From Candidatus Micrarchaeota archaeon (lineage in GTDB: Archaea > Micrarchaeota > Micrarchaeia > Norongarragalinales > SBBD01): a DNA stretch of 23,715 nucleotides. The translations under genes were made by a program, and so were the position numbers. Numbering within the stretch: position 1 is the first letter of the stretch; each line of letters opens with the position of its first letter. Below the pieces are notes generated by a model. The model worked only from the letters and a program-made list of their open reading frames with translations. It had not been told where the DNA came from and did not search any database. Location: positions 1 through 23,715 of the forward strand of contig JBBSVW010000027.1 in assembly GCA_038046605.1 (NCBI GenBank), read 5' to 3'. Positions 6,088-21,113 of the stretch are shown piece after piece.

Positions 6088-6273
6088 TTTTCTGCCTTGC
6101 CCCTTTCTTTCAAAAAGAAAGGTGCGATGGCTCCGCGCCAAAGAAACAATTAGTTCGCGAATCAAAACCTTTTTCTTTTGCGGCGCCACCGCTTTTCTTT
6201 TTTGACCTAGCAGACAAAGTCTGCGAGGCCGCAAAGAGCCATATAAGCTCTTTTCGGAAAAGAAAAGCAAGGC
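6088..6273 (-). other. tRNA-Trp T-loop intron (position ~59/60, 186 nt)
   Basis: Removal restores the TTCGAAT loop. Relaxed BHB: TTCG-AA|G-CCTTGC pairs with GCAAGG-C(A)GAA-AA|T. The exact junction is ambiguous by 1-2 nt because of A runs. Confidence 0.85.
6094..6151. repeat. 58-bp dispersed repeat, copy 1 (in tRNA-Trp T-loop intron)
   Basis: 57/58 identical to 21011-21068 in the same orientation; the only difference is 6132 T vs 21049 A. Confidence 0.97.
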
Positions 6274-6294
6274 TTCGAACCCCGATCCACAGGT

Positions 6295-6423
6295 ATCTTC
6301 GAACCTTTCTTGGGAAGAAAGCTTCACCAAAGAAAAGTCATTTCTTGCTCGTCATTATATCCGAGCTCCAACATTGCCATCATCGTCCCCGTTTAGGGAC
6401 TCAAAATACCCGAAATTAAGAAT
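6295..6423 (-). other. tRNA-Trp anticodon-loop intron (canonical 37/38, 129 nt)
   Basis: CTCC-AG|A ... GAAG-AT|A BHB-like junction with one mismatch in the 4-bp helix; removal restores the 7-nt anticodon loop. Confidence 0.9.
6349..6412 (-). ncRNA. Intron-encoded box C/D guide RNA for 2'-O-methylation of tRNA-Trp C34 and C39
   Basis: Guide CGGGTATT plus D' TTGA (6404-6401) puts the fifth nucleotide upstream of the box opposite C39. Guide TTGGAGCT plus D CGGA (6363-6360) puts it opposite C34. C' ATGATGG (6383-6377), C ATGACGA (6355-6349). These are the same targets as the known euryarchaeal tRNA-Trp intron guide. Confidence 0.85.
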
Positions 6424-6660
6424 CTGGAGCCTATTGTTCTACCAGGTTATACTATGACCCCATAAAGCCCTTCGAACAATTCCACAAGAGTATGGCAAGA
6501 AGCATTAAAAAACAAAACGGCGATGAAAATAGCTAGGCAATTTCTCATGGTGCGCAAATAGGATTAGGCGCATTTGCAGATTTAGGCTTGGATTTTGGAA
6601 TATGCAATTGATAAAACCCGCCATCATGATTATTCGGATAACTTATTGAAGGTAAACCAT

Positions 6661-7368
6661 ATGTTCGTAATCGGCGTAGACGAGGCAGGCAGGGGGCCGG
6701 TGATTGGGCCTTTGATTATTTGCGCGTATGCAATCGAAGGGGAAAAGGAGCCGGAGCTGAAAAAGGAGGGGGTGAAGGACTCCAAACTGCTCTCTGGGAA
6801 GGAAAGGGAGCGGATTGCAAAAATATTGGCGCATCACCCCCACGAAATTTGCGAGGTGCCTGCGGAAGAGATAACCCATTACATGAAAAGGAATGTGAGC
6901 CTTAACGAGATGGAGGCGGAAAAGATTGCAGCTGCTGTTTTGACATTGTCGATTAGGCTTGCCAAGGGCGCAGGCGGCTTTGGGGGGCAGGCAGGAGAAG
7001 TGATCTCAAAGATCTTCGTGGATTCGCCCGATCCGATACCAAAGAAATTCGAGGTGAGAATCCGAAAATACTTAAGGGGAACGCCGCTTGAAAAAACCAA
7101 TATTGTGAGCGAGAACAAGGCGGATTTCAAGTATTTGTGCGTGGGCGCGGCGTCCATACTGGCAAAGAGCATGCGCGAAAGAAGGGTGGCAGATATTGCC
7201 GCGGAAGTAGGGGAGGATTTTGGCACCGGCTATCCTAGCGATGAAAAAACGGTCGAATTCCTGAAAAAGCATTACAAGGATGGGAATTTGCAAAAATACA
7301 TCCGGCACGGCTGGGCGACGATGAAAAACATAAGGACGACGGAACTCAAGCTGAAGGAATTTTTCTAA
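6661..7368 (+). CDS. rnhB: Ribonuclease HII
   Basis: GVDEAGRGPVIGP, VKDSKLL, ENKAD...VGAASILAK, FGTGYPSD; C-terminal PIP-box-like 'ELKLKEFF'. ATG 6661 preferred over TTG 6595. Confidence 0.96.
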   Translation: MFVIGVDEAGRGPVIGPLIICAYAIEGEKEPELKKEGVKDSKLLSGKERERIAKILAHHPHEICEVPAEEITHYMKRNVSLNEMEAEKIAAAVLTLSIRLAKGAGGFGGQAGEVISKIFVDSPDPIPKKFEVRIRKYLRGTPLEKTNIVSENKADFKYLCVGAASILAKSMRERRVADIAAEVGEDFGTGYPSDEKTVEFLKKHYKDGNLQKYIRHGWATMKNIRTTELKLKEFF

Positions 7369-7427
7369 ATAAAAAAATTTGGCGGAGTATAACTAATTAA
7401 ATATATTCGCAAATGCCGGCCTACCCT

Positions 7428-9527
7428 TCATTTCTCATCGTAGAATTCCAAATACGGCCAAACCCACTGGCTCCAGAACTGCGCAGGGTTCCTAACAGGC
7501 ACGGGAGAAAGCAGATCGGCATTGGGGGCATAATTTTCGCCTTCCGGCAGGGCAAAAAGCTCATGGGAATAAAACATCGCCCCCTCCTCCATTTGATGCT
7601 TGAGGTTGCTTTCAAGGATTTCTGGCGCCCTAGAATCCTTAATCCGGGTTAGGAGCCTAAATAGGGCGGGGCTTTCCCTTGGCCAAATCACCGCCTCATG
7701 GTACTGCTCATCCCCAAGGAAAATGCGGTTTTTTGAGTTGCGGACAAGAATGCCAAAGAGCAATCGTTTCCGGTACACCAGGGATGTTTCGAATTTGGAA
7801 ATCAACTTGGAAATTTCCCCATCTGAAAAAAGCTCGGGCACAAGCGCCGCGGAGTAAATTGAGGCGCTGCATTGGAGATCGCTTTTTTCAAAGCTCAAAT
7901 CAACCATGTCGCAGGCCTTATCCGAAAAGAAAAACGACTTGAAATTAAGCGACGCAGCGGCCTCCATCGCGGAAAATTCCTGCGAAGGGTAAAGCGAATT
8001 GAAATCCCTAAGGAACCGGATCCAGAGGGCATTGATTTCAACTAGGTAATAGTTGGGTCCAAGCGCCCAACCCTTGAATTCCTCAAAATTTTGGGATTCG
8101 CGCAAATGTTTTTCAATCCAGCGTTCAGGCAGCCTGCAGGGAAGCAAAATGCCCCTCCCGAAATGCTCAGCGTGCTTTCTCGAATCGATCCACGAATAAT
8201 TTGCAGGGCAGGCAAGAAGGTAGTTTTCAAGGCGCAAACTCCCTTTCGAGAGGGATTGCAAAAAGGAACGGGCAAATTCCCGAAATTTCCTCGAGAATAC
8301 CTTGTCATCGGAATGCCGCAGGTACGATACCCCGCAAAGAAGGCAAAGCAGGGTAGCATCGGCGGAGGAATAGTCCGTATTTTCGCCGCCTTTTTCCGCG
8401 AGCTTGTTTGGGATAATGCCCTCCCTTTGCATGGATATGGCTGCCAGCAGGAAATTCCTAACCTGCAGCCTTTTCATTTTGTGGAAGATATCGAAATTCT
8501 CATAAATCCCAAGCAGGGCGTCCCGGAACCATATGTTCCTAAACCAGAATGCACCGGCATCGGGAGCAACCACATCTCCATTTGCGAATTCGAATGCCTC
8601 AAGAAGGCCATAAAGGCGGCCCAGTATGTCGCGATGCGCGCTTTGGGAAAGGGCGCTTTTTTTCCTAAGAGGGCGGAGGAATGTTTTTTCCAGGCGAGAC
8701 ACCTTGGCAATGATTTTTTTTTCGTCGTGCGCCTTAAGCTCCTTGGACGGGGAATTTTTTTTATTGCTGGAGGGATAGAATGAAATTGCCGCGCAGCCTT
8801 TTGGCATCAAAAGTGAAATTGTCCCCGGAATGAACAGCGTTCGTTCCTCGCCTTGGAATTTCAATTGCCCTTGCGCGATATGGCGGCTTCCGGAGCCTAA
8901 TTTGTAGAACCAGTGCTGGTGATTGGGCGCCTGGGAAAAAGAAGTGAAATTTTTACTGTGCAAAACCATGCCTTTGCCCTTCCGCTCAACCGCAAGCCCT
9001 TGGTGGATTTCCGAAATTTTGTAGCCGGATGGATCGGAAGGGGCGTACATATGGCGGATATCGAATAGGGCAAGGAGGTCAATGGATAGGCCCTTGCCAT
9101 GAATGCCGGAAACCGAGTATGTGATTTCAAGCATTGGCAATTTCGAAGAACGGTAGAGGTAATACTCCACCTCGAGGAGGGCGCCGGATAGCTCTTCTTT
9201 AAATCCGCCGGTTAGGGAGTAAGTGTAAAGCGCCTTCCATGGGAAGATGCGCACATTTTTTGGGATGGCGAGCAATGTTACGCCCCCATTTTTTATGCGG
9301 AATGCAACGCCATCAAGCAATTTCCAGTTTTCTTTTCCAAGTATTGCGCAAAAGCCCTCGTAGGGATAGTCGCGGTTTGGGATGGTGTATTCACCAAGGG
9401 CCACTGACGCTGCGCTTTGGGAAAATTCGGAATGCGAATTGCGGAGGATGGAGCGCACGCTCCTTGCAAATCCGAAATCCGGATTTTCCTTTGGATCCAA
9501 GTCAATGAAGAGGTTTTTTGGGTTCAT
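7428..9527 (-). CDS. Glycogen debranching enzyme / amylo-alpha-1,6-glucosidase (archaeal GDE_N + GDE_C type)
   Basis: DAGAFWFRNIWFRD, GIIPN, YSSADATL, SWID, VEINALW, YHEAVIWP, ELF, QFWS match the GDE C-terminal motifs (AG..WF...W.RD, TWMD, YHNGTVWPW, QAWS). Confidence 0.85.
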   Translation of the reverse strand: MNPKNLFIDLDPKENPDFGFARSVRSILRNSHSEFSQSAASVALGEYTIPNRDYPYEGFCAILGKENWKLLDGVAFRIKNGGVTLLAIPKNVRIFPWKALYTYSLTGGFKEELSGALLEVEYYLYRSSKLPMLEITYSVSGIHGKGLSIDLLALFDIRHMYAPSDPSGYKISEIHQGLAVERKGKGMVLHSKNFTSFSQAPNHQHWFYKLGSGSRHIAQGQLKFQGEERTLFIPGTISLLMPKGCAAISFYPSSNKKNSPSKELKAHDEKKIIAKVSRLEKTFLRPLRKKSALSQSAHRDILGRLYGLLEAFEFANGDVVAPDAGAFWFRNIWFRDALLGIYENFDIFHKMKRLQVRNFLLAAISMQREGIIPNKLAEKGGENTDYSSADATLLCLLCGVSYLRHSDDKVFSRKFREFARSFLQSLSKGSLRLENYLLACPANYSWIDSRKHAEHFGRGILLPCRLPERWIEKHLRESQNFEEFKGWALGPNYYLVEINALWIRFLRDFNSLYPSQEFSAMEAAASLNFKSFFFSDKACDMVDLSFEKSDLQCSASIYSAALVPELFSDGEISKLISKFETSLVYRKRLLFGILVRNSKNRIFLGDEQYHEAVIWPRESPALFRLLTRIKDSRAPEILESNLKHQMEEGAMFYSHELFALPEGENYAPNADLLSPVPVRNPAQFWSQWVWPYLEFYDEK

Positions 9528-9643
9528 ATAAAATAATTCAACTTAATGCTGCACGAATGGGTAAAGATGGCGCTGCTTCCGATTCGGCTTAAGAATCCAC
9601 ATTTGCAACCCATTTACCCGGAACGCAATTGTTTCCTTTTTTT

Positions 9644-9856
9644 CTATTGCCTAAGCTTGTATTTGTATAGCAGCGGAACCTCGCCAACGATGTCCAGTTT
9701 GCCCTCCCTGCCAAGCCAGCCAAGCCCCGCATAAACCTCCGAATCCGTAAGCTTGGTTTTGCGCTTTAGCTGCGCAATTGTCAGGGGCCCAAATTCATTC
9801 AGGCAGCTCCACACTATGCCCGATTTTGCGCCAAAATACTCCTCAACACCCACCAT
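9644..9856 (-). CDS. Small winged helix-turn-helix protein (DUF2582-like)
   Basis: 'FGAKSGIVWSCL...LTIAQLKRKTKL...VYAGLGWLGREGKL' matches the IG..AG.VW..L / ALGWLAREGKI pattern; AGGTGA RBS upstream. Confidence 0.85.
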   Translation of the reverse strand: MVGVEEYFGAKSGIVWSCLNEFGPLTIAQLKRKTKLTDSEVYAGLGWLGREGKLDIVGEVPLLYKYKLRQ

Positions 9857-9913
9857 CTTGCATCACCTGCAATTTTTTTTCAGATTAATTTTTTTACTGC
9901 TAATTATCCCTTA

Positions 9914-11458
9914 TCACCCCATTTCAAACCGCTCATAATTTGCCTGCGCATGGCCGTAGATTTCAAATACTTTTTGCACTATGAAATTCCAATCGAAGTA
10001 GCGCTGCGAAACCCGCTGCGATGCGCCCTTCGAGATTTTTCTCCTTAGGCGATCGTCCTTTAGGCAAATGGCAATGATGCGCGCAAGGTAGCCCGGGTTC
10101 ATGTCAAACCTATCCTCCTCCATGGGGACCTTGAAGCCGGAAGCGCCATTTTTCACAACCTCCGCCATGCCGCCGGTATCGCCAACAATTGCAACGGGAC
10201 CGGAAAGGCCGTTTAGTTCGCTTGCCAAATCCGCGGCAAAAACCTCCAGGGTGACAAGGCCAAATGGCTCGTAGAGGGAGGGGAGGGCAATCACATCTGA
10301 TGCGCAAAACATCCCCTTCTTAAGATCCTCGCCAAGCCAGCCATTGTAAATTATGGCATCGCGCTCCAGTTGGAGCTTTGTGATCATCCCAAAATAATTT
10401 GCATACTCATCATTGGATAGGTTTGAGGAAATCACAAGGCCCGCATTTATTTTCGTTGCGGATTTAAGAAGCGCAAATGCCGATATCAGGGCGTCAATGC
10501 CCTTGCGGTATTCCGCCCTGCCTATGAAGAGCACGTACTTGTCCTTTCCCGGAAGCGCTTTTTGGAGCACTTTCCTTCCCGCATCGATGTTTTCCTTTGT
10601 AACAGAGCGCCAGCTGTCAAGGATTATTCCATTTGTCAGGCCGGCTGCCGCATCTGTAACAACCTCAAGATCGGATCCTGCCTCGAAGAGGAGCATATCC
10701 TCAAATCGCTCCTCTTTCCAGAGCTGGTAGTCGAGCCATTTCCTTGTCCTAAAGGGCGAAAGGGCGCTTCGAAGCCGCTGCTTTGCGGGGAGCAGGTTGT
10801 AAAGCTCGAATTTTGCCTCGTGGACTGAAACCCCCTGGAGATAATCCGCCTCCTGCAAAGCCGCGGTTTCTATCAGGACGGGGGGGGCATCGAAATCCGG
10901 ATGGCCAAGGCTCCTCCCAAATTCCCCCGAATGGAACCTGCAATTGAGCGGCCGCTTGATTTTTTCCCTCGTAAGGAAGCCCGCCGGGAATGCGAGCCAA
11001 TCCTGCGCATCAATAAGGGCTATATCCTCCTTCTTTTGCTTTATTAGGAAATCCGCAAATTCGGGCACGGCCTTCCAGTAGGCATTTAGCATGCGGTAAT
11101 ATTCCCAAAAGGCCGCCTTGTCGGATTTGATGCGGTATTTTACCCACAGTTCGCCATGGAAGCGGTTCTTTTCCTCATCGGTTAGGGAGCTTTCGAGGAA
11201 GAGGCACTTGATCCCTCCGCGCATCCCCTCGTAAACAAGGGTTTTGGGGTGCTTTTCCATGAAATCGGAATACTCGGAGGAAAATCTTAGGTCGGAGAGC
11301 GGAACGGATGGGTCCCTAATCGAAATTGGCATGGGCTCGAAGGGCGCAGTTTTCCCTTCAAGGGCATTTTTCCAGGCGGAGAAAAGCTCAATGGAGTAGC
11401 GGTGAAGGCCGCCAACTGGCCTATGCAGCTCGGTTACAAGGAAGAGCACTTTTTTCAT
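9914..11458 (-). CDS. GT4 (GT-B) glycosyltransferase, glycogen-synthase-like
   Basis: ELHRPVGGL, AQDWL, FHSGEFGR, NGI, LFIGRAEYRKGID, PSLYEPFGLVTLE, TGGMAEVV. Confidence 0.85.
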   Translation of the reverse strand: MKKVLFLVTELHRPVGGLHRYSIELFSAWKNALEGKTAPFEPMPISIRDPSVPLSDLRFSSEYSDFMEKHPKTLVYEGMRGGIKCLFLESSLTDEEKNRFHGELWVKYRIKSDKAAFWEYYRMLNAYWKAVPEFADFLIKQKKEDIALIDAQDWLAFPAGFLTREKIKRPLNCRFHSGEFGRSLGHPDFDAPPVLIETAALQEADYLQGVSVHEAKFELYNLLPAKQRLRSALSPFRTRKWLDYQLWKEERFEDMLLFEAGSDLEVVTDAAAGLTNGIILDSWRSVTKENIDAGRKVLQKALPGKDKYVLFIGRAEYRKGIDALISAFALLKSATKINAGLVISSNLSNDEYANYFGMITKLQLERDAIIYNGWLGEDLKKGMFCASDVIALPSLYEPFGLVTLEVFAADLASELNGLSGPVAIVGDTGGMAEVVKNGASGFKVPMEEDRFDMNPGYLARIIAICLKDDRLRRKISKGASQRVSQRYFDWNFIVQKVFEIYGHAQANYERFEMG

Positions 11459-11490
11459 GTCGCATCAACCTACTGTTTTTCATTTCCTAA

Positions 11491-12882
11491 TTATTGAATA
11501 ATATTTGCAGCGGCGTTGGAAGGGATAGGCACTTCGCCCCCAATAATTCCACTATTTTCACCGTTGAATGGGCGAGTGGGATTTTCATCTTCCGCCCTGA
11601 ATTCTTTTTCCTCGAATGCGGATTTGATTTCGGCCATCCTTTTCTTGCCAAAAATGTTTGCCCGCTCGTTTTCCTGCCGCGTAAGTTCGTAGCCAACCTG
11701 GCGCTTGAAGTGCTGTAAGATGTTCATGTAATTTATGAAATTGTCATAAGGCGTGTTTTCCTTGTAGGGGGAAAAGTGCTTATGCACATCCCCATCCTGC
11801 CAGCTTTTTGTGCAAAGGTAGTAGAGATGATCCGAGGTCTGGAGGAGGCGGTAGGTATGGAGCAATTCGGGATTGTTGGCTAGGCGAACTTTTTCCCCAA
11901 GGGATTCGAGCTGGTTGAAACACGCCCATTGAATCTTGTTGCCAAGCCAGGCGGAAACGTCGCGCTCCAAATCCGCCCATGAGAGGTTGCTTGGGACATC
12001 GATTTCACCAACCTTATCAAACGCGGATAGGGTTTGCGAGCAGGTTTTGAATGAGAGGTTTTGGTATTTCAAGACTTCAGATGGCAAGTGGCGAAGGAAC
12101 GAGAGGATTCCGGTATCGTGCCAGTGGTGCTCGCCAAATGTCTCATAGTCCATGAAGAGGTTGATCGTATCGCCCTGCGCTTTTGAGAGCCAGGAAGCGT
12201 ATTTGTCCGCCGTCAGGGGCCATTCACTCCACCACTTGGCGGAAAAGCGATAGCCAATATCGTCGCTTAATTTGTAATTGCGCAAAAGAACGCCCAGGTT
12301 GCCGCCCTGGTTCTTGTAAACATAATTTGGCGACCTCCAGCCAAGCACCCATTCGATGCCTTCCGTAAGCATTCCCGAGTAACCCATGCCCTCGACAATT
12401 TTGGCGATCCTATTGGAATAAATCACCTCGGTATTCCGAAAAACCTTGGGAGTTTGATGGAATTCATCACGCAAAAGGGCGCTATGCATCTTCACCTGCT
12501 CCTCGAATTCCTCCGGATCGGAAAATAGGCTTGCAAGCGAATGGTAATAGGTTTCATCCAGGAATTCCACATTTCCAGTTGAGGCAAGTTGGCGGAAGGA
12601 ATCCAATACGTCCCTTCCGGGGGCGGTTTTTTTCGCCTGCTCAATGAAGGTCCCGGTTATGCTGTAATTTACCTTGAATGCACCGTAGTTTTCCTCGATT
12701 AGGCGAAGGAGAAGCTTGTTTGTTGGCTCATAGCATTTCGTTTTTGCCTTGTTGAAATAGTGCTCGTTCATCGGGGCGTTGAAGTAGTGCTCCAAAAGCG
12801 GCTTTCCACCCTCATGGAATAGGGAGAACTTGCCAAACCGGATGGGCTGGTGGACATGGAAGTACAGGCAAATTGATGGCAT
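11491..12882 (-). CDS. Glycoside hydrolase family 57 (alpha-amylase-like)
   Basis: GH57 regions HVHQP, ETYYHSL, FRNTE (nucleophile), MDYETFGEH (acid/base), LQTSDHLYY. ATG 12882 (MPSICLYF) preferred over TTG 12906. Confidence 0.93.
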   Translation of the reverse strand: MPSICLYFHVHQPIRFGKFSLFHEGGKPLLEHYFNAPMNEHYFNKAKTKCYEPTNKLLLRLIEENYGAFKVNYSITGTFIEQAKKTAPGRDVLDSFRQLASTGNVEFLDETYYHSLASLFSDPEEFEEQVKMHSALLRDEFHQTPKVFRNTEVIYSNRIAKIVEGMGYSGMLTEGIEWVLGWRSPNYVYKNQGGNLGVLLRNYKLSDDIGYRFSAKWWSEWPLTADKYASWLSKAQGDTINLFMDYETFGEHHWHDTGILSFLRHLPSEVLKYQNLSFKTCSQTLSAFDKVGEIDVPSNLSWADLERDVSAWLGNKIQWACFNQLESLGEKVRLANNPELLHTYRLLQTSDHLYYLCTKSWQDGDVHKHFSPYKENTPYDNFINYMNILQHFKRQVGYELTRQENERANIFGKKRMAEIKSAFEEKEFRAEDENPTRPFNGENSGIIGGEVPIPSNAAANIIQ

Positions 12883-12884
12883 GG

Positions 12885-13295
12885 TTATTTTTCGACCTTT
12901 TTCCAATTAATTGCAAGTGTAAGCGAGCACGCGACAATGTAGAGCCAGATGAATTGCATCAAAATCGAAAAGATTGCGAAGGGGATGCCGGATTGCAAAA
13001 GGGGGGTAAGCCCGTAGCTTTGCCATAGCAGGAACGAGGGGAAGCTTAGGATTATCAATGCCCAATAAAATACCCAAAATAAGGTGTCGGGCTTTAGCTG
13101 TGGGCTAACGGATAGGAATGCGAATGATATTCCAAGGAATAGGGTTAGGAGCAATAGGTAAATGCGTTTTTGCCTTGTGGGGGATAGGAATTGCCTAAGC
13201 CGGGATTGCCTTACAACCCCCTCAAATTCGGATTCGCCAAAGGATGGATGTGGGATTTTTGGTTTTTCCAAATTGCGCTTTATTTTTTGTTCCAT
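12885..13295 (-). CDS. Hypothetical membrane protein (~3 TM)
   Basis: 136-aa ORF packed between GT4 and GH57 on the same strand; three hydrophobic segments. Confidence 0.7.
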   Translation of the reverse strand: MEQKIKRNLEKPKIPHPSFGESEFEGVVRQSRLRQFLSPTRQKRIYLLLLTLFLGISFAFLSVSPQLKPDTLFWVFYWALIILSFPSFLLWQSYGLTPLLQSGIPFAIFSILMQFIWLYIVACSLTLAINWKKVEK

Positions 13296-13327
13296 ATATT
13301 TGACACGCCAATAATTTTTTAACGGGT

Positions 13328-14605
13328 TCAGCCCGTCCTTTCATTCATGATTTTTTCATAAACCAATTTTGTTTCTGCCGCGCATTTTTGCCAGTTGAAA
13401 TGCCCGGCCTCCTCCCTTGCGCCAGAAGAGAGCATTTCCCGAAGCTCGGCGTACCTTAGCACTGCAAGCATCTTGTTTGCCATCTCATCCACGTCCCAAA
13501 AATCAACGCGCAGGCAATGGTTTATGATTTCGGATACCCCGCAGCTTTTGCTTACAATTGCAGGGACGCCATTTGCCATTGCCTCAAGGACGGTTAGGCC
13601 AAAGGGCTCGGAAATGGATGGGAGCACATACGCATCCGCAATCGCATAAAGGTAGGGCAGCTTGGATTCCTCGGCATAGCCCGTGAACATCACATTATCA
13701 ATGATGCCCATGGAAATTGCCTCATTCACAAGCTGGGGAAGCATATCGCCCTTCCCGGAAATTATGAAGCGCACATCCGGATCCAATTCGAGCACCTTTT
13801 TTGCGGCCTTGAGGAAAAAATCGGGCCCTTTTTGGATGGAGAGGCGACCGTGGAAAAGGACGACTTTTCCGGTAATCCCAAATTGCTCCTTTTTCACCTG
13901 CGATTTGTATTTGGATAGGTCGATCCCGTTGTAAATTACTGTGATTTTTTCGGGTTTTGCGCCAAATCTTGAAACGAGCTGGTTTTTGGTCATGTTGCTG
14001 ACAGTGATCACATGGCTGGATTGCGCCATTGCATTGCGCTCAATAGCTAATATCCACTCAAATGGCGAAATGTTGGCGGTTCTGTCGTATTCGGTGCTAT
14101 GCATTGTGCCAATTGCGGGCCTGCCTATCCGTTTTGCGGCATCAAGGCCCGCCTTTGCGGTTATCCAGTCATGAAAATGAACGAGGCCGTATTTTTCCCT
14201 GCGGTTCTTTTGGGCAACGAGCTTTGCGACAAGGAAATTGTACCTTCCAACGGCTTCGAAGAAATTTAGGCCATAGCTTTCATCGGTTTTTGGGTCGTCG
14301 GTAATTGAGGGATCGCCATTTTTCGCATCACCAACCTTATTCTTCCCGCCGCCCATTTTAAGGAACTTGAAATAGGGGCCAAACTCGGCGTCCGTTAAAT
14401 CGATTTCACCAACAAATGCGGAATAATCAACCGGGATGATGCGGACATTTGGATGGGGGGAAATAATTGTTGTGCCGGAACTAGGCATATAGAAATCGAT
14501 TTTGACCCCAAGGTTGGCAAGCGCTTTTGTAAGTTCAAAGCAATGGACGCCAAGGCCTCCGCTAACAAAGGGGGGGAATTCCCAACCCAGCATTGCAACT
14601 CGCAT
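13328..14605 (-). CDS. GT4 glycosyltransferase (glycogen synthase-like)
   Basis: MLGWEFPPFVSGGLG, HFHDW, HSTEYDR, VIYNGID, GRLSIQKGP, PSISEPFGLTVLEAM; this type is usually found next to GH57 and GDE genes. Confidence 0.92.
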   Translation of the reverse strand: MRVAMLGWEFPPFVSGGLGVHCFELTKALANLGVKIDFYMPSSGTTIISPHPNVRIIPVDYSAFVGEIDLTDAEFGPYFKFLKMGGGKNKVGDAKNGDPSITDDPKTDESYGLNFFEAVGRYNFLVAKLVAQKNRREKYGLVHFHDWITAKAGLDAAKRIGRPAIGTMHSTEYDRTANISPFEWILAIERNAMAQSSHVITVSNMTKNQLVSRFGAKPEKITVIYNGIDLSKYKSQVKKEQFGITGKVVLFHGRLSIQKGPDFFLKAAKKVLELDPDVRFIISGKGDMLPQLVNEAISMGIIDNVMFTGYAEESKLPYLYAIADAYVLPSISEPFGLTVLEAMANGVPAIVSKSCGVSEIINHCLRVDFWDVDEMANKMLAVLRYAELREMLSSGAREEAGHFNWQKCAAETKLVYEKIMNERTG

Positions 14606-14949
14606 TATTTATCTACCGTATTCATGTTAAATTCCCGTCCAATTGGAAAAAACAGCTTAATTTGAGCTTGAATTTGGAAAAAAAGTTAAAATCCAGCTGC
14701 GTTTAACCATCGGAATAATAATGCAAAGCGGATTGAATCCATTTTTGCACTGTTTACTATTGTTATTTGGGGTATAAAAGAGTAAGGTATGCAAGAAATA
14801 CCGCCCTAAATCAGCCCGTAATTTACTACCAGTTTGGAGGGAAAAAATACGGGCAATCAGAAAATGAAGCGCATGGCTGAACATACAAAAGCCAGTCAGA
14901 TCCAGCATGCCATTTTGAACCCCCACTATTTTCCGCCAATAGTTTGCGA

Positions 14950-17916
14950 TTAGGGGGATAGGAAGATGGCGGGCTTTAGGGGAAGGGAACGCTGCGCTTT
15001 TCCTTGCGGATCGGCATCAATTGGAAGGTTTCCGGCTAAGTACGCCTCAACTTTGCATCCAAATCGATTTTCAAATAGTGGAAGGCTTTGGGAGAGCAGG
15101 GAAAACTCGTCAAATTCCGGGATTGCAACTGTTTTGTAATAATTTACTGATTTGCTGATTTGAAGAAGGAACTGGGGCACGAGTTTTGCATGGGGCTTGA
15201 ATTTTCCATCGGCCATTGCAAGCTTGATTAGGGAGGGCACATCGAATTTTCCATCGGCCTGCGCTTTATTCAAGGCGAGCTTGAAAAGACCGGTTTTCCA
15301 GCCTTCGCAGGCATAGAGGCGGATAAGCTTGGGGGAGGAACTTGTAATCTGGATGATGCGCGCTACATCGGATGCCACATTCTCAAGGTATTTTTCCCCC
15401 TCTTCCAAAGAGGCGTTGATTTTCGAGGGATCGGGTATGGGATAGGCTGCATCTGAACAATAACCCGTTTTCCCCATGATTTTCCAGGCCTCTTCTGAAA
15501 AATGCGGCGTGAAGGGGCAAAGCATCGGGATGATTCTTTCAAGGCAGCCCCTTACTAGCAAAACATCCGCATCTTCGCCCTTTGAATTGGCATATTGCCT
15601 AAGTGCCTCCACTCCCTTGAAAACAATTGCCTGGATTGCCGTGCGGAATTCCATTTTTTCCATTGCGGCGCTGGCAGATAGGAGGCTTGATTCGATGCGG
15701 CTTTGGAGAAGTTTTTCCTCCCTTCCAAATGCGGGTTGATTTGTTGGCAGGGGATTGCCATTCGAAATGGAGTCCAAATGGGCATTGGGCTTTTTTCCCC
15801 CCAATCCTTCCATGTTTTTTATTTTTTCCACCTGGCCTAAAATGAATTCAAGGCTGCGGTTGTAGGTTTTGATGCCCTCTTCGCGCCAGTTGGCATCATC
15901 GAGTCCTTCGCCGGCGGCGGTTATGTTTATGCGCACAAGATCGGCGCCGTATTCTGTGAGCATCTTGAAAATGGGCAGGAAATTCCCCTTGCTCTTGCTC
16001 ATCTTTTCCCCTTCGACTGTGACATAGCCATTGACGGAAATGGCCCTTGGTGAAAGTTGGGGGCCAAAAATGGCAACGTGGTGGAAGAGGAGGAAGAGGA
16101 GATGGTTTTGCAACAGGTCCTTTCCGGAATTGCGCAAATCAACGGGGTAGAAATAGGCAAATTCGGCTTTCATTTCGGAAATAATGGATGCGGGCAAACC
16201 GGAGCGTTTTGATATCCCATCCAAATCGCCAATTCCCAGGAAAATATAATCGAAAACTTCATCCGTTAGCTTTTCTGCCAGTATTCCCCACTCATTGATT
16301 GCCCTTGCAATTGTGTAGTAGGCCATGTAAATGGTGCTATCCGAAAGCGTTTCCACTTTCCATTCCTTATCCCACGGAAGCCTTGTGCCAAGCCCGCCTT
16401 TCCTTGCGCATGCCTTGTTTTGGAGCCAATCAATTGTGTTTTCCATCTGGAGCCGCGCATCATTTGGGAAAATCGGCATGGTTTTGAGATGGGATTTGAC
16501 GGCTTCTTTCCATTTAGGGTCTGAAAATTTCAAGAACCACTGGTTTTCAAGAATCTTCACATGGCATTTGGCCATGCAACGGCAGACCACATCCCCGGTG
16601 GATTCCCACATGGAGGAGGCGATTTTGAGTGATTTGAATTTGGCAATTATAGGATCCTTGGATTCTGAAATGGATTTGCCGGCAAACTCGCCAAACATCC
16701 CCTTCAAGATTCCCTTGTGGAATTCAAGCTTGTAGATTTGCGAGGTTGCCTCTACTAATTTTACGGCGTCTTTTTGGGAAGTAATCCCTAATTTTTTGCA
16801 CTCCTCGATAGCCGGGTAATTGCCATGGCCCTCAATTGAAATCAGTGAAATGGGGGTTATAGACGCAAGGAGGCTTTTGGATATCCCAAGCGATGCCAAT
16901 TCTCCTTCATTTTTCTTTTTCAAATCTTCAAGGGCAATGTAATCGTATGGCGCATGGGCAGGAACGCCCATTACAACCCCGGTTCCGGTGTTTGGGGATA
17001 CAAAGGATGCGGGGAGTATGGGGATTGGCGAATTCAGGAGGGAAATTTTGCATTTTTTTCCTATGAGGGATCTTGGGCCGATGGGAATGGCGCCCTCCAG
17101 AATGTGCTGCTGGTCTGAGAGCTTTAGGGCCGCATACTCTGAAACAACCCACATTTGCCCATCCACTTTCACTTTCACATATTTTTCATCCGGGTTAAGC
17201 CAAATGTTGGTTGCGCCGTAAGTTGTTTCGGGGCGCAAAGTTGCGCAGGGGAGAATTATTTTTTCGCCGTTAATTTCCGCCTCGAATTTGATTATGGTGT
17301 ATTCGATTGGGGATTCGCCCTCGCCGGTGTACCTATCGTGGTCGCCCGTTGGGGATTTGTCATGCGGGCACCAGATCACCGGATGCGTGCCTTGCACAAC
17401 ATAGCCCTTCTTCCTTAATGTATTGTACTGCCATTCGATGAAGCGCGAATATTGGGGGGTGAGATCGGTTGTGATGAATTTCCTTCGCCAGTCAATTGAT
17501 GCGCCGGCGGATTTGAGATCGGAAATCCATTTTTGCATCCAGAATTTGGCAACGTGCTCGGGGCCTTTTTTGAATCCCTCGATTTCGGAATTAGTGGCAC
17601 CGGCCTTCTTGAAATTTTCCACCTGCGCCAAATCGCCTTTGCGCAATCGTTCAACTGTTCCCATGATGGGTTCTCCGGTTGCATGGAAGCCCTGTGGGAA
17701 GAGCGTATTATAGCCCTGCATGCGCTTGAACCGGGCGTAAACATCAGTTCGGAAAAAAGAATAACTGTGCCCGACATGCATGGCGCCGTTCAAATAAGGG
17801 TAGGGGAAAGTAATGAGGAACTTTTTGCGCTTGGGATCCGGGTTTGCCTCGAAAATTTTGGCATTTTCCCATTCTGCTTGCCATTTCTTTTCGTTTGCAA
17901 CAAAATCAAAGGGCAT
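14950..17916 (-). CDS. leuS: Leucine--tRNA ligase (archaeal type)
   Basis: FPYPYLNGAMHVGH (HIGH), ATLRPET and GTGVVMGVPAHAPYD (CP1 editing domain), SGKDLLQNHL, KMSKSKGN, C-terminal PLKPAI. Confidence 0.97.
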   Translation of the reverse strand: MPFDFVANEKKWQAEWENAKIFEANPDPKRKKFLITFPYPYLNGAMHVGHSYSFFRTDVYARFKRMQGYNTLFPQGFHATGEPIMGTVERLRKGDLAQVENFKKAGATNSEIEGFKKGPEHVAKFWMQKWISDLKSAGASIDWRRKFITTDLTPQYSRFIEWQYNTLRKKGYVVQGTHPVIWCPHDKSPTGDHDRYTGEGESPIEYTIIKFEAEINGEKIILPCATLRPETTYGATNIWLNPDEKYVKVKVDGQMWVVSEYAALKLSDQQHILEGAIPIGPRSLIGKKCKISLLNSPIPILPASFVSPNTGTGVVMGVPAHAPYDYIALEDLKKKNEGELASLGISKSLLASITPISLISIEGHGNYPAIEECKKLGITSQKDAVKLVEATSQIYKLEFHKGILKGMFGEFAGKSISESKDPIIAKFKSLKIASSMWESTGDVVCRCMAKCHVKILENQWFLKFSDPKWKEAVKSHLKTMPIFPNDARLQMENTIDWLQNKACARKGGLGTRLPWDKEWKVETLSDSTIYMAYYTIARAINEWGILAEKLTDEVFDYIFLGIGDLDGISKRSGLPASIISEMKAEFAYFYPVDLRNSGKDLLQNHLLFLLFHHVAIFGPQLSPRAISVNGYVTVEGEKMSKSKGNFLPIFKMLTEYGADLVRINITAAGEGLDDANWREEGIKTYNRSLEFILGQVEKIKNMEGLGGKKPNAHLDSISNGNPLPTNQPAFGREEKLLQSRIESSLLSASAAMEKMEFRTAIQAIVFKGVEALRQYANSKGEDADVLLVRGCLERIIPMLCPFTPHFSEEAWKIMGKTGYCSDAAYPIPDPSKINASLEEGEKYLENVASDVARIIQITSSSPKLIRLYACEGWKTGLFKLALNKAQADGKFDVPSLIKLAMADGKFKPHAKLVPQFLLQISKSVNYYKTVAIPEFDEFSLLSQSLPLFENRFGCKVEAYLAGNLPIDADPQGKAQRSLPLKPAIFLSP

Positions 17917-17986
17917 AAAATCAGCTCAGGGCAGATTTTACCCTCTCAAAGAATAAAAGCGTGTGTAAAACGGGGCCTGTTGGAAA

Positions 17987-18000
17987 GAAAAGTATAAATA
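17987..18000 (+). promoter_or_regulatory. Putative archaeal BRE/TATA promoter
   Basis: GAAAAG-TATAAATA in the intergenic region divergent from leuS, upstream of a small + strand ORF. Confidence 0.45.
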
Positions 18001-18064
18001 CTCAAAATACCATATCAATATAACGAAATAATTGGGGATGCGGAAATTTCAAGGGGATAAGGAT

Positions 18065-18193
18065 ATGGAAGCAGTTGCAATTTTGATGGGAATAGTCGTA
18101 GCATACCTCTTTGCGTTCACAACAATAAAACGCGATGGGCTAATTGAGATTCTGGTTCTTTTGGGAGCAGGGATTTGGCTGGTTGGGGCATAA
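18065..18193 (+). CDS. Small membrane protein (42 aa; 51 aa from in-frame ATG 18038), absent from the ORF track
   Basis: Manual translation MEAVAILMGIVVAYLFAFTTIKRDGLIEILVLLGAGIWLVGA*: two hydrophobic helices with a KRD turn; TATA box upstream; its stop abuts the stop of the convergent gene. Confidence 0.55.
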   Translation: MEAVAILMGIVVAYLFAFTTIKRDGLIEILVLLGAGIWLVGA

Positions 18194-18772
18194 TCACATC
18201 GGCTCAAAATTTTGCTTGTGCTCTTCCCATTTTAAGCCCAGTGGCTTGAATAATTTTTTTGCAACGGCAATTTCCTTTCCTAGTTGGCCTTTTAACCCGG
18301 GCTCTGAAAAAATATCCACCGTGCCGTCCTCATGTATTGCAAAACCGATTTTCGTTTCGGATTGGCCCACAAAAATCGACGTCCTGCCTTCTCCCCACAT
18401 CATCCTTACCGGCACTTGAATAGCTCCTCCGGAAAGTAAAACTCTTGGATGCCATTCATGGTACCAACTTAATGGCGAAATGCGCGATTCGATCCCGATC
18501 TGGCTTTTGTCGGGGCCCTTGTATTCGTTTGGAGAACCCCCCTTGGCAAAAAATTTCAGTACGTTTGAAAGCTTGAGAAGTGCATCGGGGGAATAGTGGG
18601 CAATGTGCTTTAGGGCCGCACGTTCCAAGGGCAATTCAAGATGAAAAGCGCGATGCGAGGTGAAAACATCCCGGCCATGCGCTTCGAGGATTTTTCCTAT
18701 TATGGATGGGTGCCCCGCTTTGCGCTTCATTGCCTCGATTGTCGCATCCCATCTTTTTCCGAATACGGTCAT
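18194..18772 (-). CDS. Hypothetical protein
   Basis: Long ORF with GGTGA RBS ahead of ATG 18772 (the track starts at GTG 18781); no family recognised. Confidence 0.65.
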   Translation of the reverse strand: MTVFGKRWDATIEAMKRKAGHPSIIGKILEAHGRDVFTSHRAFHLELPLERAALKHIAHYSPDALLKLSNVLKFFAKGGSPNEYKGPDKSQIGIESRISPLSWYHEWHPRVLLSGGAIQVPVRMMWGEGRTSIFVGQSETKIGFAIHEDGTVDIFSEPGLKGQLGKEIAVAKKLFKPLGLKWEEHKQNFEPM

Positions 18773-18837
18773 TTTAATCACCCATCAGAATTTCATTCAG
18801 GCCGGATTTTGACATATTATTCGCCTAATCATCGAAG

Positions 18838-19488
18838 TTATTTAGAGCTCAAATCGTTTATTGCCCTTCTTACAAGTTCCCTATAGTATTCAACTGGCCT
18901 TCGGACAAAATGATCATATTGCTCAATATCAACTATCCGGCTTTTCCGCCAAATCTCATTCAAGCTCTCCTCCAGAGTTTTCAAATGCCCAAGAAGCCTT
19001 ATCCGGTCTACCTTAGCCTTTGTCATTTCCGGCAGTACTCTTGAAGCATGAAATTTGACCTTATATTTCCCCAACTGTTTCACGTGGCCACTCCCTTCAA
19101 CGATGGAATCGTGGAACATGTGGTTTCCCGTCACAATCCGCTTAAGTATATCGATTTCTTCTGGAGTCGCCGATGGAGGCATGAGTTTTCCACGGATATG
19201 ATCGCGGATTGATGCATAAGCCGCAACATTGCCCTGTTGTTCGGGATATTTTTCGTGGGTTTTTCCCTTGTTTAGAATTTCTGTTGCGGAAGGGAGGGTT
19301 CCAAAAAACATTGATGAATATACGCCTGTTTTAGAACCAGATCTTCGGCCGCCTGCCTCATCTGCAGCCTCTTGGTAGGCTCCCATTGCGTTGCCCATCA
19401 ATTCGCGAAGTTCTCTTCTGGCGGCAATTTTTTCCCCTTCTTCATTCATAGCAATTACCTGCCTCACGTGTTGCATCCATTCAGGCAC
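18838..19488 (-). CDS. Hypothetical protein
   Basis: 216-aa ORF co-oriented with srp54; start uncertain; no family recognised. Confidence 0.65.
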   Translation of the reverse strand: MPEWMQHVRQVIAMNEEGEKIAARRELRELMGNAMGAYQEAADEAGGRRSGSKTGVYSSMFFGTLPSATEILNKGKTHEKYPEQQGNVAAYASIRDHIRGKLMPPSATPEEIDILKRIVTGNHMFHDSIVEGSGHVKQLGKYKVKFHASRVLPEMTKAKVDRIRLLGHLKTLEESLNEIWRKSRIVDIEQYDHFVRRPVEYYRELVRRAINDLSSK

Positions 19489-19537
19489 CCAGCCCTTCCG
19501 GATTTTTCGGGAAATATGGCCATTTATAATTACCCAA

Positions 19538-20845
19538 TTAAATTTTCATCCCCGGAGGCAGCATGTTCCCAAACCGCTTCATTAACCCCCGGTTTCCCTT
19601 CATTCCCTTCATCATCTTTGAAACGCGCTCGAAAGTTGTTACAAGCTCCCGGACATTATCGTGCTTAAGGCCAGCGCCCTTTGCAACGCGCTCTTGCCTT
19701 GCCCTATTTTTCATTAGCTCGGGGTTTTTGCGCTCCTTGACCGTCATGCTAAGCACTGCCGCCTCGTAGCGTTTCATATTTGCCTCGGATTGGCCAAGCA
19801 TTTCTTCAGGCACATCGTACATGCCAAGCATTTGCAGAATCTGCTTCATGGGCCCCATTTTCTTCATGGAGCGCATCTGCGCAAGGAACGTTTCGTAGTC
19901 GAGCTTTCCTTCCTTTAGCACTTTTTCCATGGCTTCCTCATCGGAGATTTCTTGGACCTTTGAGAGAAGCGAATCCAAATCCGCAAACCCCACAAGGCGC
20001 GCAACAAATTTCTTTGCATCAAAAACCTCGAGTGCATCCGGCTTTTCGCCAAGCGTAATGAAGGCGACTTTTGAATTGCTTGCCTTGACTGCTGAAAGCG
20101 CGCCACCCCCTTTTCCCGAGCCGTCCATTTTTGTGACGATGACGCCGGTTATTCCAACAGCCTCATTGAATTGGAAGGCTTGCTTGCCGGCAACCTGCCC
20201 CAAATCTGCGGAAACCACTAGGTACTTTTCATCAGGGGCAAAAATGGAATTGATCGCCTTGAGTTCTTGCGCCAATTCCGAATCAAAAGCGCTCCTTCCT
20301 GCGGTATCGAAAATGAGCACGTCATACTGCGTTTCCAGCTTGAGGGAATTGCGTGCAATGGTTTGCGCACTTGAGCCTTTTTCGGAGTAGAAGCCGCAAT
20401 GCACGGATTGGGATAATTGCTCTAGCTGCTCAATAGCTGCTGGCCGGTGGACATCGCCGGCAATTGCGCAAACCTTAAGGCCCTTGCTTTGGTAGAATTT
20501 GGCGAGTTTGGCAATGGAGGTCGACTTGCCGCTGCCGAAGAGCCCGAGCATCAATATTTTTTGCTTTTTGGTTTGGGGCTCGTATTTTTCGCCCAGAATC
20601 AAGACGAGCTCATCGTATACTATTTTCACGATGTGCTCGCGCAAATTGAGGTTTTGCGCCTTTTTTTCCTGCATCGCCTTTTCCTCGATGGATTTTGTAA
20701 GATCATAGACCAGCTTTACATTGACATCGTTGGAAATAAGCACGCGCTGCAGCTCCTTGACAAGCTCCTTGATTGCCTTTTCGTCGACTAACGCGGCTCC
20801 GGTGAAGCGGTTTAGGGCGTTCCGGATGCCGGCTCCCAGGTCCAT
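19538..20845 (-). CDS. srp54: Signal recognition particle 54 kDa protein
   Basis: ELQRVLISNDVNV, GLFGSGKSTS, DVHRPAA, DTAGR, TKMDGSGKGGGALS, Met-rich M domain with SMT..ER.NP. Confidence 0.97.
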   Translation of the reverse strand: MDLGAGIRNALNRFTGAALVDEKAIKELVKELQRVLISNDVNVKLVYDLTKSIEEKAMQEKKAQNLNLREHIVKIVYDELVLILGEKYEPQTKKQKILMLGLFGSGKSTSIAKLAKFYQSKGLKVCAIAGDVHRPAAIEQLEQLSQSVHCGFYSEKGSSAQTIARNSLKLETQYDVLIFDTAGRSAFDSELAQELKAINSIFAPDEKYLVVSADLGQVAGKQAFQFNEAVGITGVIVTKMDGSGKGGGALSAVKASNSKVAFITLGEKPDALEVFDAKKFVARLVGFADLDSLLSKVQEISDEEAMEKVLKEGKLDYETFLAQMRSMKKMGPMKQILQMLGMYDVPEEMLGQSEANMKRYEAAVLSMTVKERKNPELMKNRARQERVAKGAGLKHDNVRELVTTFERVSKMMKGMKGNRGLMKRFGNMLPPGMKI

Positions 20846-21003
20846 ATTGATCAGCTTTACTTATCTGAAAATAAGGGTTAATAAGCGTGGCGAAAAGGTG
20901 CAAAAAACAGGCAAATGGGGAGAGGGATTGAATGGATGAACGCGGCCAGTATCGCGCCTCTTTTCCACGCTCAAAGGAATAAGAATAAATGGGGGCGCTG
21001 AGA

Positions 21004-21113
21004 TTTGAACGCCTTGCCCCTTTCTTTCAAAAAGAAAGGTGCGATGGCACCGCGCCAAAGAAACAATTTGATTTGCGAATTAAATAGCTTCATTAGCGGC
21101 GCTTAAGGCAGGC
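21004..21113 (-). other. tRNA-Pro T-loop intron (position 58/59 or 59/60, 110 nt)
   Basis: Removal restores TTCAAAT; intron ends pair (GCCTGCC / GGCAAGGC); GTTCAAA occurs at both junctions, so the exact boundary is ambiguous. Confidence 0.85.
21011..21068. repeat. 58-bp dispersed repeat, copy 2 (in tRNA-Pro T-loop intron)
   Basis: 57/58 identical to 6094-6151. Confidence 0.97.

Follow-up and report, generated by a model that had tools for sequence, protein, structure and literature searches.

Hairpin-rich repeats in tRNA T-loops of Norongarragalinales (Micrarchaeota) as a proposed family of mobile, spliceable DNA

Background

In the Thermoproteales, according to section 17 of PMC4090602 (which cites Fujishima et al. 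2010), similar introns have been transposed among tRNA genes by an unknown mechanism that is presumed to operate at the level of DNA. Excerpts of a study of ARMAN-2 (Candidatus Micrarchaeum acidiphilum) describe tRNA introns at positions 53/54 and 59/60, and report that the EndA endonuclease of this organism cleaves a 59/60 intron in vitro (PMC3239211). The integration of mobile elements has been proposed as a source of tRNA gene disruption (excerpts of PMC3293823 and PMC3239211), and a 2026 census of Asgard tRNA introns, in its available portion, found no route of arrival and states that 'how they arrive remains open' (10.64898/2026.10.13.758758). Here we analyze a stretch of 23,715 nt from a groundwater Candidatus Micrarchaeota archaeon (assembly GCA_038046605.1, contig JBBSVW010000027.1, positions 1-23,715; hereafter the window), in which the genes for tRNA-Trp(CCA) (trnW) and tRNA-Pro(UGG) (trnP) carry homologous inserts in their T-arms. 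We propose, with a probability of roughly 0.6, that both inserts belong to a non-autonomous, hairpin-rich family of DNA repeats that has multiplied in the tRNA T-loops of the Norongarragalinales and survives there in the form of spliced introns.

The inserts share with the Thermoproteales introns, as these are portrayed in parts of PMC4090602 and 10.64898/2026.10.13.758758, the occurrence of near-identical introns across tRNA identities and positions in a single genome, a gain that close relatives show to be recent, bulge-helix-bulge (BHB) junctions and a broad-specificity endonuclease. They differ in their host, a DPANN archaeon of the Micrarchaeota with an epsilon2 enzyme instead of the (alpha-beta)2 type, and in a set of features that the same parts of those sources do not report for the Thermoproteales, namely their length (63-248 nt), inverted modules, insertion in both orientations, nesting and copies outside tRNA genes with target duplications of 15-37 nt. 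With ARMAN-2 they have in common the phylum, the intron positions (59/60, and in tRNA-Pro 53/54 as well as 59/60) and the type of EndA (excerpts of PMC3239211; PDB 4fz2), but the ARMAN-2 introns are short (13-25 nt in the assayed substrates) and are not reported in those excerpts as a repeated family. A search of the literature and of two Micrarchaeota genome papers yielded no description of the present family; supplementary tables, such as the ARMAN tRNA lists and the Asgard introns, might hold related observations.

Miniature inverted-repeat transposable elements (MITEs) and REPINs (doublets of REP sequences mobilized by RAYT) are small, non-coding, multi-copy repeats with inverted terminal hairpin modules that can form a long hairpin or cruciform and that bear conserved boxes. 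The present family is like them in being small and multi-copy, and in having inverted hairpin modules with boxes beside stems that are conserved in structure. However, it has no target duplication of fixed length, no cognate transposase bounded by matching ends came to light, it does not co-occur with the RAYT-like Y1 transposase, and it combines an extreme preference for tRNA T-loops with a predicted removal from RNA by splicing. It is neither a classical MITE, as defined by a fixed duplication length and an autonomous partner, nor a REPIN/RAYT system. There is also a likeness to the tRNA integration sites of archaeal viruses and plasmids, for which a link to tRNA disruption has been proposed (PMC3293823), in that at several loci a tRNA stretch reaching from the T-loop to the 3' end is present on both sides of the insert. 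This likeness only partly fits, as the insert measures only ~55-190 nt, no integrase was found and most copies are T-loop introns without a long duplicate.

Results and discussion

Two interrupted tRNA genes with a common block

ARAGORN, when run on the whole window, gave no tRNA gene, and Rfam gave no match at its gathering threshold. The two genes were placed by reading the minus strand and by aligning orthologs, those of the congeners G005 and G002 locating the 5' exon of trnW, after which the exons were joined and submitted to ARAGORN. In what follows, G000 denotes the genome of the window, a 1.64-Mb assembly, and G001-G006 its six congeners; C-numbers designate contigs of G000, L-numbers loci fetched for comparison and X-numbers public sequencing runs. 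The genes and their T-arm inserts are:

6074..6461, minus strand: tRNA-Trp(CCA) gene with two introns; exons 6461-6424, 6294-6274 and 6087-6074, which when joined give 73 nt recognized as Trp(cca) by ARAGORN
6088..6273, minus strand: full element of 186 nt that forms the 59/60 T-loop intron of trnW and is made up of L module, central palindrome, R module and 6-nt tail
20990..21258, minus strand: tRNA-Pro(UGG) gene with two introns; exons 21258-21237, 21150-21114 and 21003-20990, which when joined give 73 nt recognized as Pro(tgg) by ARAGORN
21004..21113, minus strand: T-arm intron of trnP, 110 nt, with a truncated L end, the centre, a complete R module and the tail

Splicing out the introns in silico restores, for Trp and Pro alike, a cloverleaf with a normal T-loop. 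A preliminary description, made from the letters of the window alone, had given 6088-6273 and 21004-21113 as the limits of the two inserts, and these proved exact for the 59/60 junction. It had also reported a 58-bp block with a single mismatch, and indeed 57 of 58 nt are identical between 6094-6151 and 21011-21068, which lie on the minus strand in both genes. This block is by far the longest repeat of the window, in which the other repeat families reach at most 30 nt and at most 83% identity. The similar termini, GCCTTGC...GCAAGGC in Trp and GCCTGCC...GCAAGGC in Pro, and the related hairpin centers, TTGATTCGCGAA and AATTCGCAAATCAA respectively, are likewise as first described. The statement that both inserts occupy the same T-loop site holds for the 59/60 reading and is not strictly provable: the tail GTTCAAA of the Pro insert (21010-21004) repeats the 7 nt that precede the insert, and because GTTCAAA flanks it on both sides the Pro junction may equally be set at any position from 53/54 through 59/60.

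Two doubts had been raised at the outset, namely that intact intron-less copies of trnW or trnP(TGG) might lie elsewhere in the genome, and that the duplication might be an artefact of assembly. Neither was borne out. A blastn-short search found no second set of trnW or trnP(UGG) exons in the 1.64-Mb assembly, and the exons of both genes are intact. Being the sole copies in the assembly, with exons identical to those of their orthologs, both genes must work. A contig of run X4, from an independent study, covers 20699-21122 including the Pro insert with 0 differences, and the Trp intron recurs at the identical site in the independent assemblies G002 and G005; the shared repeat is not an assembly artefact. 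Certain DNA contigs contain joints that skip the introns; their sides span only 22-23 nt and they probably stem from relatives, which makes them a weak support for the intron boundaries.

Anatomy of the repeat

The full element consists of two inverted terminal modules of ~55 nt, each with a conserved box, a hairpin of 7-9 bp and a GGCAAGGC end, which surround a central palindrome; modules also occur solo. In the Trp T-loop intron its parts are:

6167..6273, minus strand: L module of trnW, with terminus GCCTTGC (6273-6267), hairpin L and box GGTGGCGCCGC (6190-6180)
6203..6255, minus strand: nested two-hairpin insert of 53 nt in the loop of hairpin L, missing from the G005 ortholog
6151..6166, minus strand: central palindrome, TTGATTCGCGAAC-like; its motif TTGATTYGCRAATCAA recurs in many copies
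6094..6149, minus strand: R module of trnW, within the 58-nt block common to trnP
6088..6093, minus strand: intron tail AGAAAA, in which AGAA stands against T-loop nt 54-57 (UUCG) with 3/4 pairs, and AA together with U60 makes up the 3' bulge

Read along the tRNA strand, the intron begins with GCCTTGC, which is followed by hairpin L with its U-rich and A-rich arms, the GC box GGTGGCGCCGC, an A-rich run and the palindrome, and continues with a U-rich run, box A, the second hairpin, the GGCAAGGC end and the tail. Within the R module this order appears on the minus strand as TTTCTTT, box A GGCGCGGAGCCATCGC (6139-6124), hairpin R with its arms at 6122-6114 and 6110-6102 (CCTTTCTTT and AAAGAAAGG), and the terminus at 6101-6094. 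The L module is related to the R module in inverted orientation, and its reverse complement matches the hidden Markov model (HMM) built for the module. Reverse-strand hits of the module HMM fall at the same loci across the family, revealing that terminal inverted repeats are present. The Trp palindrome is of the TTGATTCGCGAA kind, with AATTCGCAAATCAA at the center of the Pro intron, in which the L end is reduced to GCCTGCC fused to GCGCCGC and is joined to a complete R module at ~21011-21066. The nested insert of the Trp intron is replaced by a mere 'AG' in contigs of runs X3 and X4, both from another study, and other copies contain its module, facing one way or the other.

When 61 distinct modules were aligned, the boxes GCGG-N-GCC..CGC and GCAAGGC proved invariant. 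The adjoining hairpin is conserved in structure, with 7 pairs kept in 58-61 of the 61 modules by means of Watson-Crick double changes (for example, CG in 45 and UA in 15), while G-U pairs are nearly nil. Such compensation by Watson-Crick pairs only, with few G-U pairs, is what one would expect if the palindrome mattered on both strands, as DNA, and not in one RNA alone. The Rfam searches returned nothing above the gathering threshold, and e-value scans gave only sub-threshold chance hairpins (ctRNA_p42d, mir-515). A reading of GCGGAGCC as a K-turn was dropped on inspection by eye, no partner strand GGC-NNN-GA being found.

A multi-copy family concentrated in T-loops

The preliminary description had envisaged a T-loop intron family from two genes. 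Its core, that the inserts are homologous, multi-copy and present in different tRNAs, stands, but the copies are far more numerous than two and are not confined to T-loops or to tRNA genes. Searches with blastn-short and iterated nhmmer showed that the 58-nt block, like the remaining parts of the Trp intron, recurs on many G000 contigs, and 63 distinct copies were collected from G000 plus the fetched loci. Using the purine-run and CAAGGC ends as the mark, and reading the flanks, we recognized 27 genuine element ends in G000, of which 24 lie in or abut tRNA genes. The three that do not are C79:7940 (intergenic, 2 nt past a stop codon), C93:9431 (in the leader of proS) and C57:10432 (340 nt downstream of a tRNA). 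T-loops were surveyed with a purpose-made scan that looks for complementary acceptor and T-stem strands and produces many false positives, which were filtered by eye; by this count, 18 tRNA genes of G000 have an insert of 63-248 nt in the T-loop and 11 have none. A family L and/or R terminus is found in 13 of these 18 T-loop introns, and the L terminus lies 0-3 nt from position 59 in 13 T-loop introns. Other copies occupy the anticodon loops of five tRNA-Thr-like genes (G000 C23:43164; L007, L010, L027 and L030) and one D-loop (G000 C106:10788). According to the flanks, the asymmetric module of the GGAGCC type stands on the 3' side and in tRNA sense in ~19 T-loop cases, the opposite arrangement (5' side, antisense) being seen in ~6, as in tRNA-Ala(UGC) on G000:C1. 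Modules also nest in the hairpin loops of others, in both orientations.

Among 41 related genomes, which are non-independent samples, 17 have matches to the Trp intron; the genus contributes 6/6 and the family 9/10, and the presence in other families is patchy. The module is 93-96% conserved across genera. The exact composite pattern was found at 25 loci from 8 named Micrarchaeota/Norongarragalinales assemblies, and on 0 viral contigs. Rfam tRNA matches number 16, 13 and 19 in three genomes of the genus, as against 25, 30 and 24 in three genomes from other genera, which is consistent with a heavier disruption of tRNA genes in the genus.

Filled and empty sites

That the family had spread recently, as was surmised at the start, is supported by presence, absence and replacement of inserts among the orthologs of congeners. 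The trnW T-loop is filled in G000, G001, G002, G005 and G006, and the T-arm is uninterrupted in G003, of the same genus, and in 5/5 resolved genomes of other genera; in G004 the gene is interrupted by a contig end, and every resolved genome keeps the 37/38 intron. The trnP(UGG) gene, which adjoins the SRP54 gene in every genome, exists in at least three T-arm intron states among the 7 genomes of the genus: G000 and G001 have the element with the R module, G004 has a 20-nt T-loop intron, G003 a composite, and G002, G005 and G006 an unrelated intron at 53/54. The module found in the D-arm of the G000 trnP stands in both the D-arm and position 53/54 among the G003 and G005 orthologs. At trnI(GAU), the 3' end is empty in G003-G006, where the gene ends in a T-run. 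In G000 and G001 this site is occupied by ~190 nt of modules, together with a repeat of 21-23 nt that covers G53 to the discriminator+2.

Direct target repeats of 15-37 nt flank ~10 of the ~60 copies, mostly solo right modules, and some of them are perfect (33/33 at L034). The lengths of the duplicates are 7, 15, 18, 19, 23, 30, 32, 33 and 37 nt, and they are absent or short in most T-loop copies. At tRNA genes, the duplicate always spans the T-loop to a point just beyond the 3' end. We also observed an arrangement in which a complete tRNA 3' end is followed by modules and then by a T-loop-to-acceptor copy of 15-23 nt (C9:22987, C57:10225, C68:6100, C89:36709 and C26:10843-11029); at these G000 genes either copy could in principle complete the tRNA.

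Outside tRNA genes, filled and empty sites occur at the 5' end of proS, the gene for prolyl-tRNA synthetase: G000, G002, G004 and G005 carry an insert there, and G001, G003 and G006 have none. A solo module sits in the leader (G000:C93 ~9321-9470; locus L117 1508-1660), flanked by two copies of the first 10 codons (G000, G005) or of the first 6-7 codons (G002, G004). The module end abuts GTTGAATTC, which resembles a T-loop when read from the opposite strand; a Shine-Dalgarno-like GGAGTGA, located ahead of the true start, is contributed by the inner end. The G005 duplicates are different at 1/30 positions. Past the module end, three of the duplicated non-tRNA copies have sequences that resemble the tails of T-loop introns (ATGAAAA, GCGAAAT and GTTGAATTC), which suggests that these copies derive from T-loop introns. 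As separate observations on proS, the decoy codons 1-10 upstream read into the module for 47 codons and stop 12 nt before the true start, and 8 synonymous positions set the true copy of G000 apart from the decoy as well as from all relatives.

Predicted splice junctions and processing enzymes

The predicted fold of the Trp T-arm together with its intron has an energy of -91.9 kcal/mol (z -5.3), and is composed of the T-stem, a junction, a terminal stem and three branches. The junction contains, in order from the T-stem, an AAU bulge on the 3' strand, a 3-bp UUC:GAA helix with an additional G.A, and a bulge of 2-3 nt (GAA) on the 5' strand, beyond which the terminal stem begins. Cuts predicted after the second nucleotide of each bulge would produce the T-loop UUCGAAU. 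We compared the four nucleotides before the last two of each intron, here called the tail, with nt 54-57 of the T-loop of the host gene. They pair at 4/4 positions in 10 genes, at 3/4 in 5, including Trp, and at <=2/4 in 3, namely Pro, C62:3356 and C68; by our own binomial estimate, with a pair probability of 0.375, the chance of at least 3/4 pairs is ~15%. Counting at least 3/4 pairs as BHB-like, 15 of the 18 T-loop introns have such a 59/60 junction, with Trp among them and Pro not. Across the 18 genes the tail covaries with the T-loop of its host: UUCG is accompanied by CGAA, UUCA by UGAA and UCCG by YGGA. A textbook BHB is formed by G000 C75:7425..7228, identified as tRNA-Gln by ARAGORN.

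The enzymes for such processing appear to be at hand. There is one EndA gene in G000 (L051:292-1458), encoding 388 aa with two tRNA_int_endo hits, and its product has a full-length match to the epsilon2 EndA of ARMAN-2 (PDB 4fz2; E 3.5e-126). RtcB is also encoded (E 2.4e-171). The proposal of the preliminary description, that the host splicing endonuclease removes the inserts, is rendered plausible by the BHB-like junction, the covarying 4-bp helix and these two enzymes, and it is from them that we infer splicing.

Candidate mobilizing enzymes

The description of the repeats as non-autonomous is upheld, in that no autonomous version was found. No element >350 nt with matching ends occurs in G000 or in 116 loci. 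Matching ends lying 350-6000 nt apart around an open reading frame (ORF) were seen in only 2 pairs, both of which are separate small copies; the ends of the DDE_Tnp_1 genes were not compared. Two such DDE_Tnp_1 transposase genes are present in G000 (C4:761-1261 and C43:36151-36636), along with a single Y1 (HUH, IS200-like) transposase of 148 aa (C9:24255-24698, minus strand; locus L052 1456-1902), which adjoins a LAGLIDADG ORF and lies 1.3 kb from a copy of the element. The idea of a RAYT/REPIN system was rejected, since the presence of the Y1 transposase does not follow that of the family. The LAGLIDADG_3 ORF is free-standing, encodes 277 aa (G000:C9:23271-24101, minus strand; loci L052 and L087-L092) and is located directly upstream of trnI(GAU), with its end overlapping the first 6 nt of trnI and a 47-nt acceptor-stem intron at position 6/7. 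Its orthologs are 58-63% identical and syntenic in 5/6 congeners. The LAGLIDADG protein is a candidate endonuclease for T-loop DNA, an association drawn from one clade.

Other introns and genes of the window

Each of the two genes has a second intron:

6295..6423, minus strand: 37/38 intron of trnW, 129 nt, canonical and outside the repeat family; kept in 11/11 resolved orthologs across the order
21151..21236, minus strand: D-arm (~21/22) intron of trnP, 86 nt; limits taken from the intron-less orthologs G001 and G004

The 37/38 intron of trnW, in our own reading of its sequence, has box C/D-like motifs (GATGATG; CGGA/CTGA; ATGACGA) that are conserved in 11 orthologs, and guides complementary to the anticodon region. 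The guide TGGAGCT places C34 five nt from the D' box, and a second one, GGGTAT in the window and CAGGTAT in orthologs, is followed by TTGA and faces position 39. We take these guides to match the tRNA-Trp intron guide known from Euryarchaeota.

The boundaries of the trnP D-arm intron are weakly supported by a contig of run X2 that skips 86 nt, from 21150 to 21237 (with a side of 23). The intron belongs to a second module family, in which a GCCCCTTTCTTTT hairpin is followed by CCCTTGGGTTCAAAGAAAAGGG, and which is also seen at 53/54 in the G003 and G005 orthologs. Beside the main repeat we thus count at least two intron module families (window 21151-21236; G000 C31, C26:14567, C55 and C9). One is built on GCCCCTTTCTTTT..AAAGAAAGGCCCTTGGGTTCAAAGAAAAGGG, and comprises the trnP D-arm intron and the 53/54 introns of G003 and G005, and the other starts with TGACAC, has a GGGGGG..CCCCCC hairpin and is found in T-loop introns and in the trailer of trnI.

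Between the two tRNA genes, at 7428-14605, the window holds a glycogen/starch-type cluster with a GDE_C amylo-1,6-glucosidase-like gene, two GT4 glycosyltransferases, one of them with a starch-synthase domain, and a GH57 gene. Such a cluster is notable for a genome of this size.

How the repeats may spread and persist

Taken together, the inverted terminal modules, the occurrence of both orientations and the target duplications argue for spread as DNA rather than RNA. We envisage that the repeat would be copied as DNA from T-loop to T-loop, with the near-universal T-loop sequence GTTCRAATC serving as a landing or microhomology site. The copying could proceed via template switching, ectopic repair or an endonuclease, and would sometimes leave duplicated target segments behind. 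An insert would be tolerated if its transcript folds such that the element ends pair, the four tail nucleotides pair with nt 54-57 of the T-loop and two bulges form; the epsilon2-type endonuclease could then cut this BHB-like 59/60 junction, after which ligation of the exons by RtcB would restore a normal UUCRAAU T-loop. The variable length of the duplications, the invariable start of the second copy at a T-loop-like motif and the variable extent of the elements point to microhomology-based transfer from one T-loop to another, whether through template switching or ectopic repair, a route that we consider possible at clearly less than even odds. We hold with slightly greater reserve the wider suggestion that these repeats are the first concrete vehicle of archaeal tRNA-intron gain, that is, self-propagating DNA landing on the universal T-loop through microhomology-guided template switching or through ectopic repair of breaks made by the LAGLIDADG protein. 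Under this suggestion, the inverted ends and the short tail would build the splice junction, such that the elements are pre-adapted to be harmless; non-canonical BHB introns would be domesticated mobile DNA, and copies would on occasion escape to T-loop-like sites such as the proS leader.

Several observations weigh against the proposal of a mobile repeat that survives by splicing. In the 59/60 register the Pro insert does not form a canonical BHB, having a central helix with 2/4 pairs, a 6x8 internal loop and a z of -1.7. In the 53/54 register, by hand pairing only, its helix h1 has 4/4 and h2 has 3/4 pairs, and the trnP orthologs of G002, G005 and G006 use 53/54 with perfect motifs. No RNA run is present among the listed public runs, and splicing is accordingly something that we infer. 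The tRNA census and the counts of orientation and context derive from our own scan and reading of flanks and not from a validated tRNA annotation. As regards mobility, searches of G000 found no tyrosine integrase (Phage_integrase), TnpB zinc-ribbon domain, reverse transcriptase or Cas1/casposase, and no enzyme that tracks the family was identified; the Y1 transposase has no match in G001, G002, G003, G005 and G006, each of which has 13-28 element matches, and its G004 counterpart is only 26% identical. All these absences in G000 are provisional because the assembly is only 90.7% complete. Duplications of 7-37 nt, being variable in length, fit no classical transposase, and the invariant boxes suggest recognition by a protein, for which the microhomology idea has no need.

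This last point leads to the alternative that a dedicated enzyme recognizes the boxes or cuts T-loop DNA, be it the LAGLIDADG protein of the genus or a nuclease or transposase on an unsampled virus or plasmid, with the small copies as its passengers. Archaeal BHB introns with LAGLIDADG enzymes are known to home as DNA. The invariance of the boxes in 61/61 modules beside a hairpin conserved in structure, the strong preference of the family for T-loop DNA, and the syntenic LAGLIDADG orthologs in 5/6 congeners of the genus with the heaviest element load all speak for it. However, the LAGLIDADG gene occupies a fixed place next to trnI in all genomes, has the appearance of a resident and is contained in no element, and its co-occurrence with the family amounts to a single clade; moreover, there is no element >350 nt, no viral contig with the pattern and no tracking by Y1, and variable duplication lengths are atypical for a transposase. 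On balance we regard this alternative as rather unlikely. The modules could instead be the att-site arm of a virus or plasmid that targets the T-loop-to-3' segment of tRNA genes, with the introns being remnants left after deletion of its body. In this case the duplicates running from the T-loop to the discriminator (+0-3 nt) right after the module end at 6 tRNA loci (G000 C9, C57, C68 and C89; L009 and L004) have the shape of attL/attR, and the 30-nt proS duplicate of G000 differs at synonymous sites only. Yet no tyrosine integrase was found in G000, no module occurs on viral contigs and there is no long element, and 13 L termini situated within 0-3 nt of position 59 would call for many precise deletions. 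Nor does the proS duplicate have to be foreign, as in G005 it is different at 1/30 positions and in G000 it is the resident copy that has diverged. Integration scars therefore strike us as improbable.

A role of the module at the RNA level is a little more doubtful still. Here the boxes and hairpins would be kept for the sake of an excised, probably circular, intron or of the pre-tRNA, and the likeness between copies would be due to selection and gene conversion. The high conservation of the module across genera (93-96%, with invariant boxes) while the flanking parts of the introns diverge is in line with this, and trnW itself offers a precedent in its 37/38 intron with a box C/D guide. Nevertheless, relative to the tRNA some copies are transcribed in one orientation and some in the other, in our own reading the box stem has C-A mismatches in the sense strand of Trp and Pro that become G-U on the other strand, and stems are maintained through Watson-Crick changes only. 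Intergenic and 5'-leader copies, the patchy presence among orthologs and the lack of an Rfam match above the gathering threshold are equally at odds with such a role. Transposition as RNA, in which excised introns would reverse-splice into other tRNAs and be fixed by reverse transcription and recombination, could account for introns at spliceable junctions with tails matching the host T-loop, but not for both orientations, nesting both ways or non-tRNA copies with target duplications. In addition, no reverse transcriptase was found in G000 and a mature T-loop offers no BHB to the endonuclease, and we disfavor this route as very improbable. Finally, one might take the two loci for dead tRNA pseudogenes or a chimeric assembly of repeats, given that standard tRNA finders miss both genes, that the Pro junction is poor and that Logan contigs of the likely source run break within the repeats. 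The intact, ortholog-identical exons of what are the only trnW and trnP(UGG) genes of the assembly, the same arrangement in G001, G002 and G005, and the X4 contig that spans the Pro insert with 0 differences largely refute this reading.

Conclusions

The family provides a ready explanation of why standard tools see only ~1/3 of the tRNA genes in these genomes, and this affects the quality scores assigned to DPANN bins. The arrival of archaeal tRNA introns at new sites is an acknowledged open question, to which the repeats bring young, near-identical copies with recognizable ends, in both orientations, nested, and with filled and empty sites in one genus, along with target duplications and an off-target insertion at a T-loop-like site in the leader of a protein gene. 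In combination, these features make the route by which such introns arrive directly testable.

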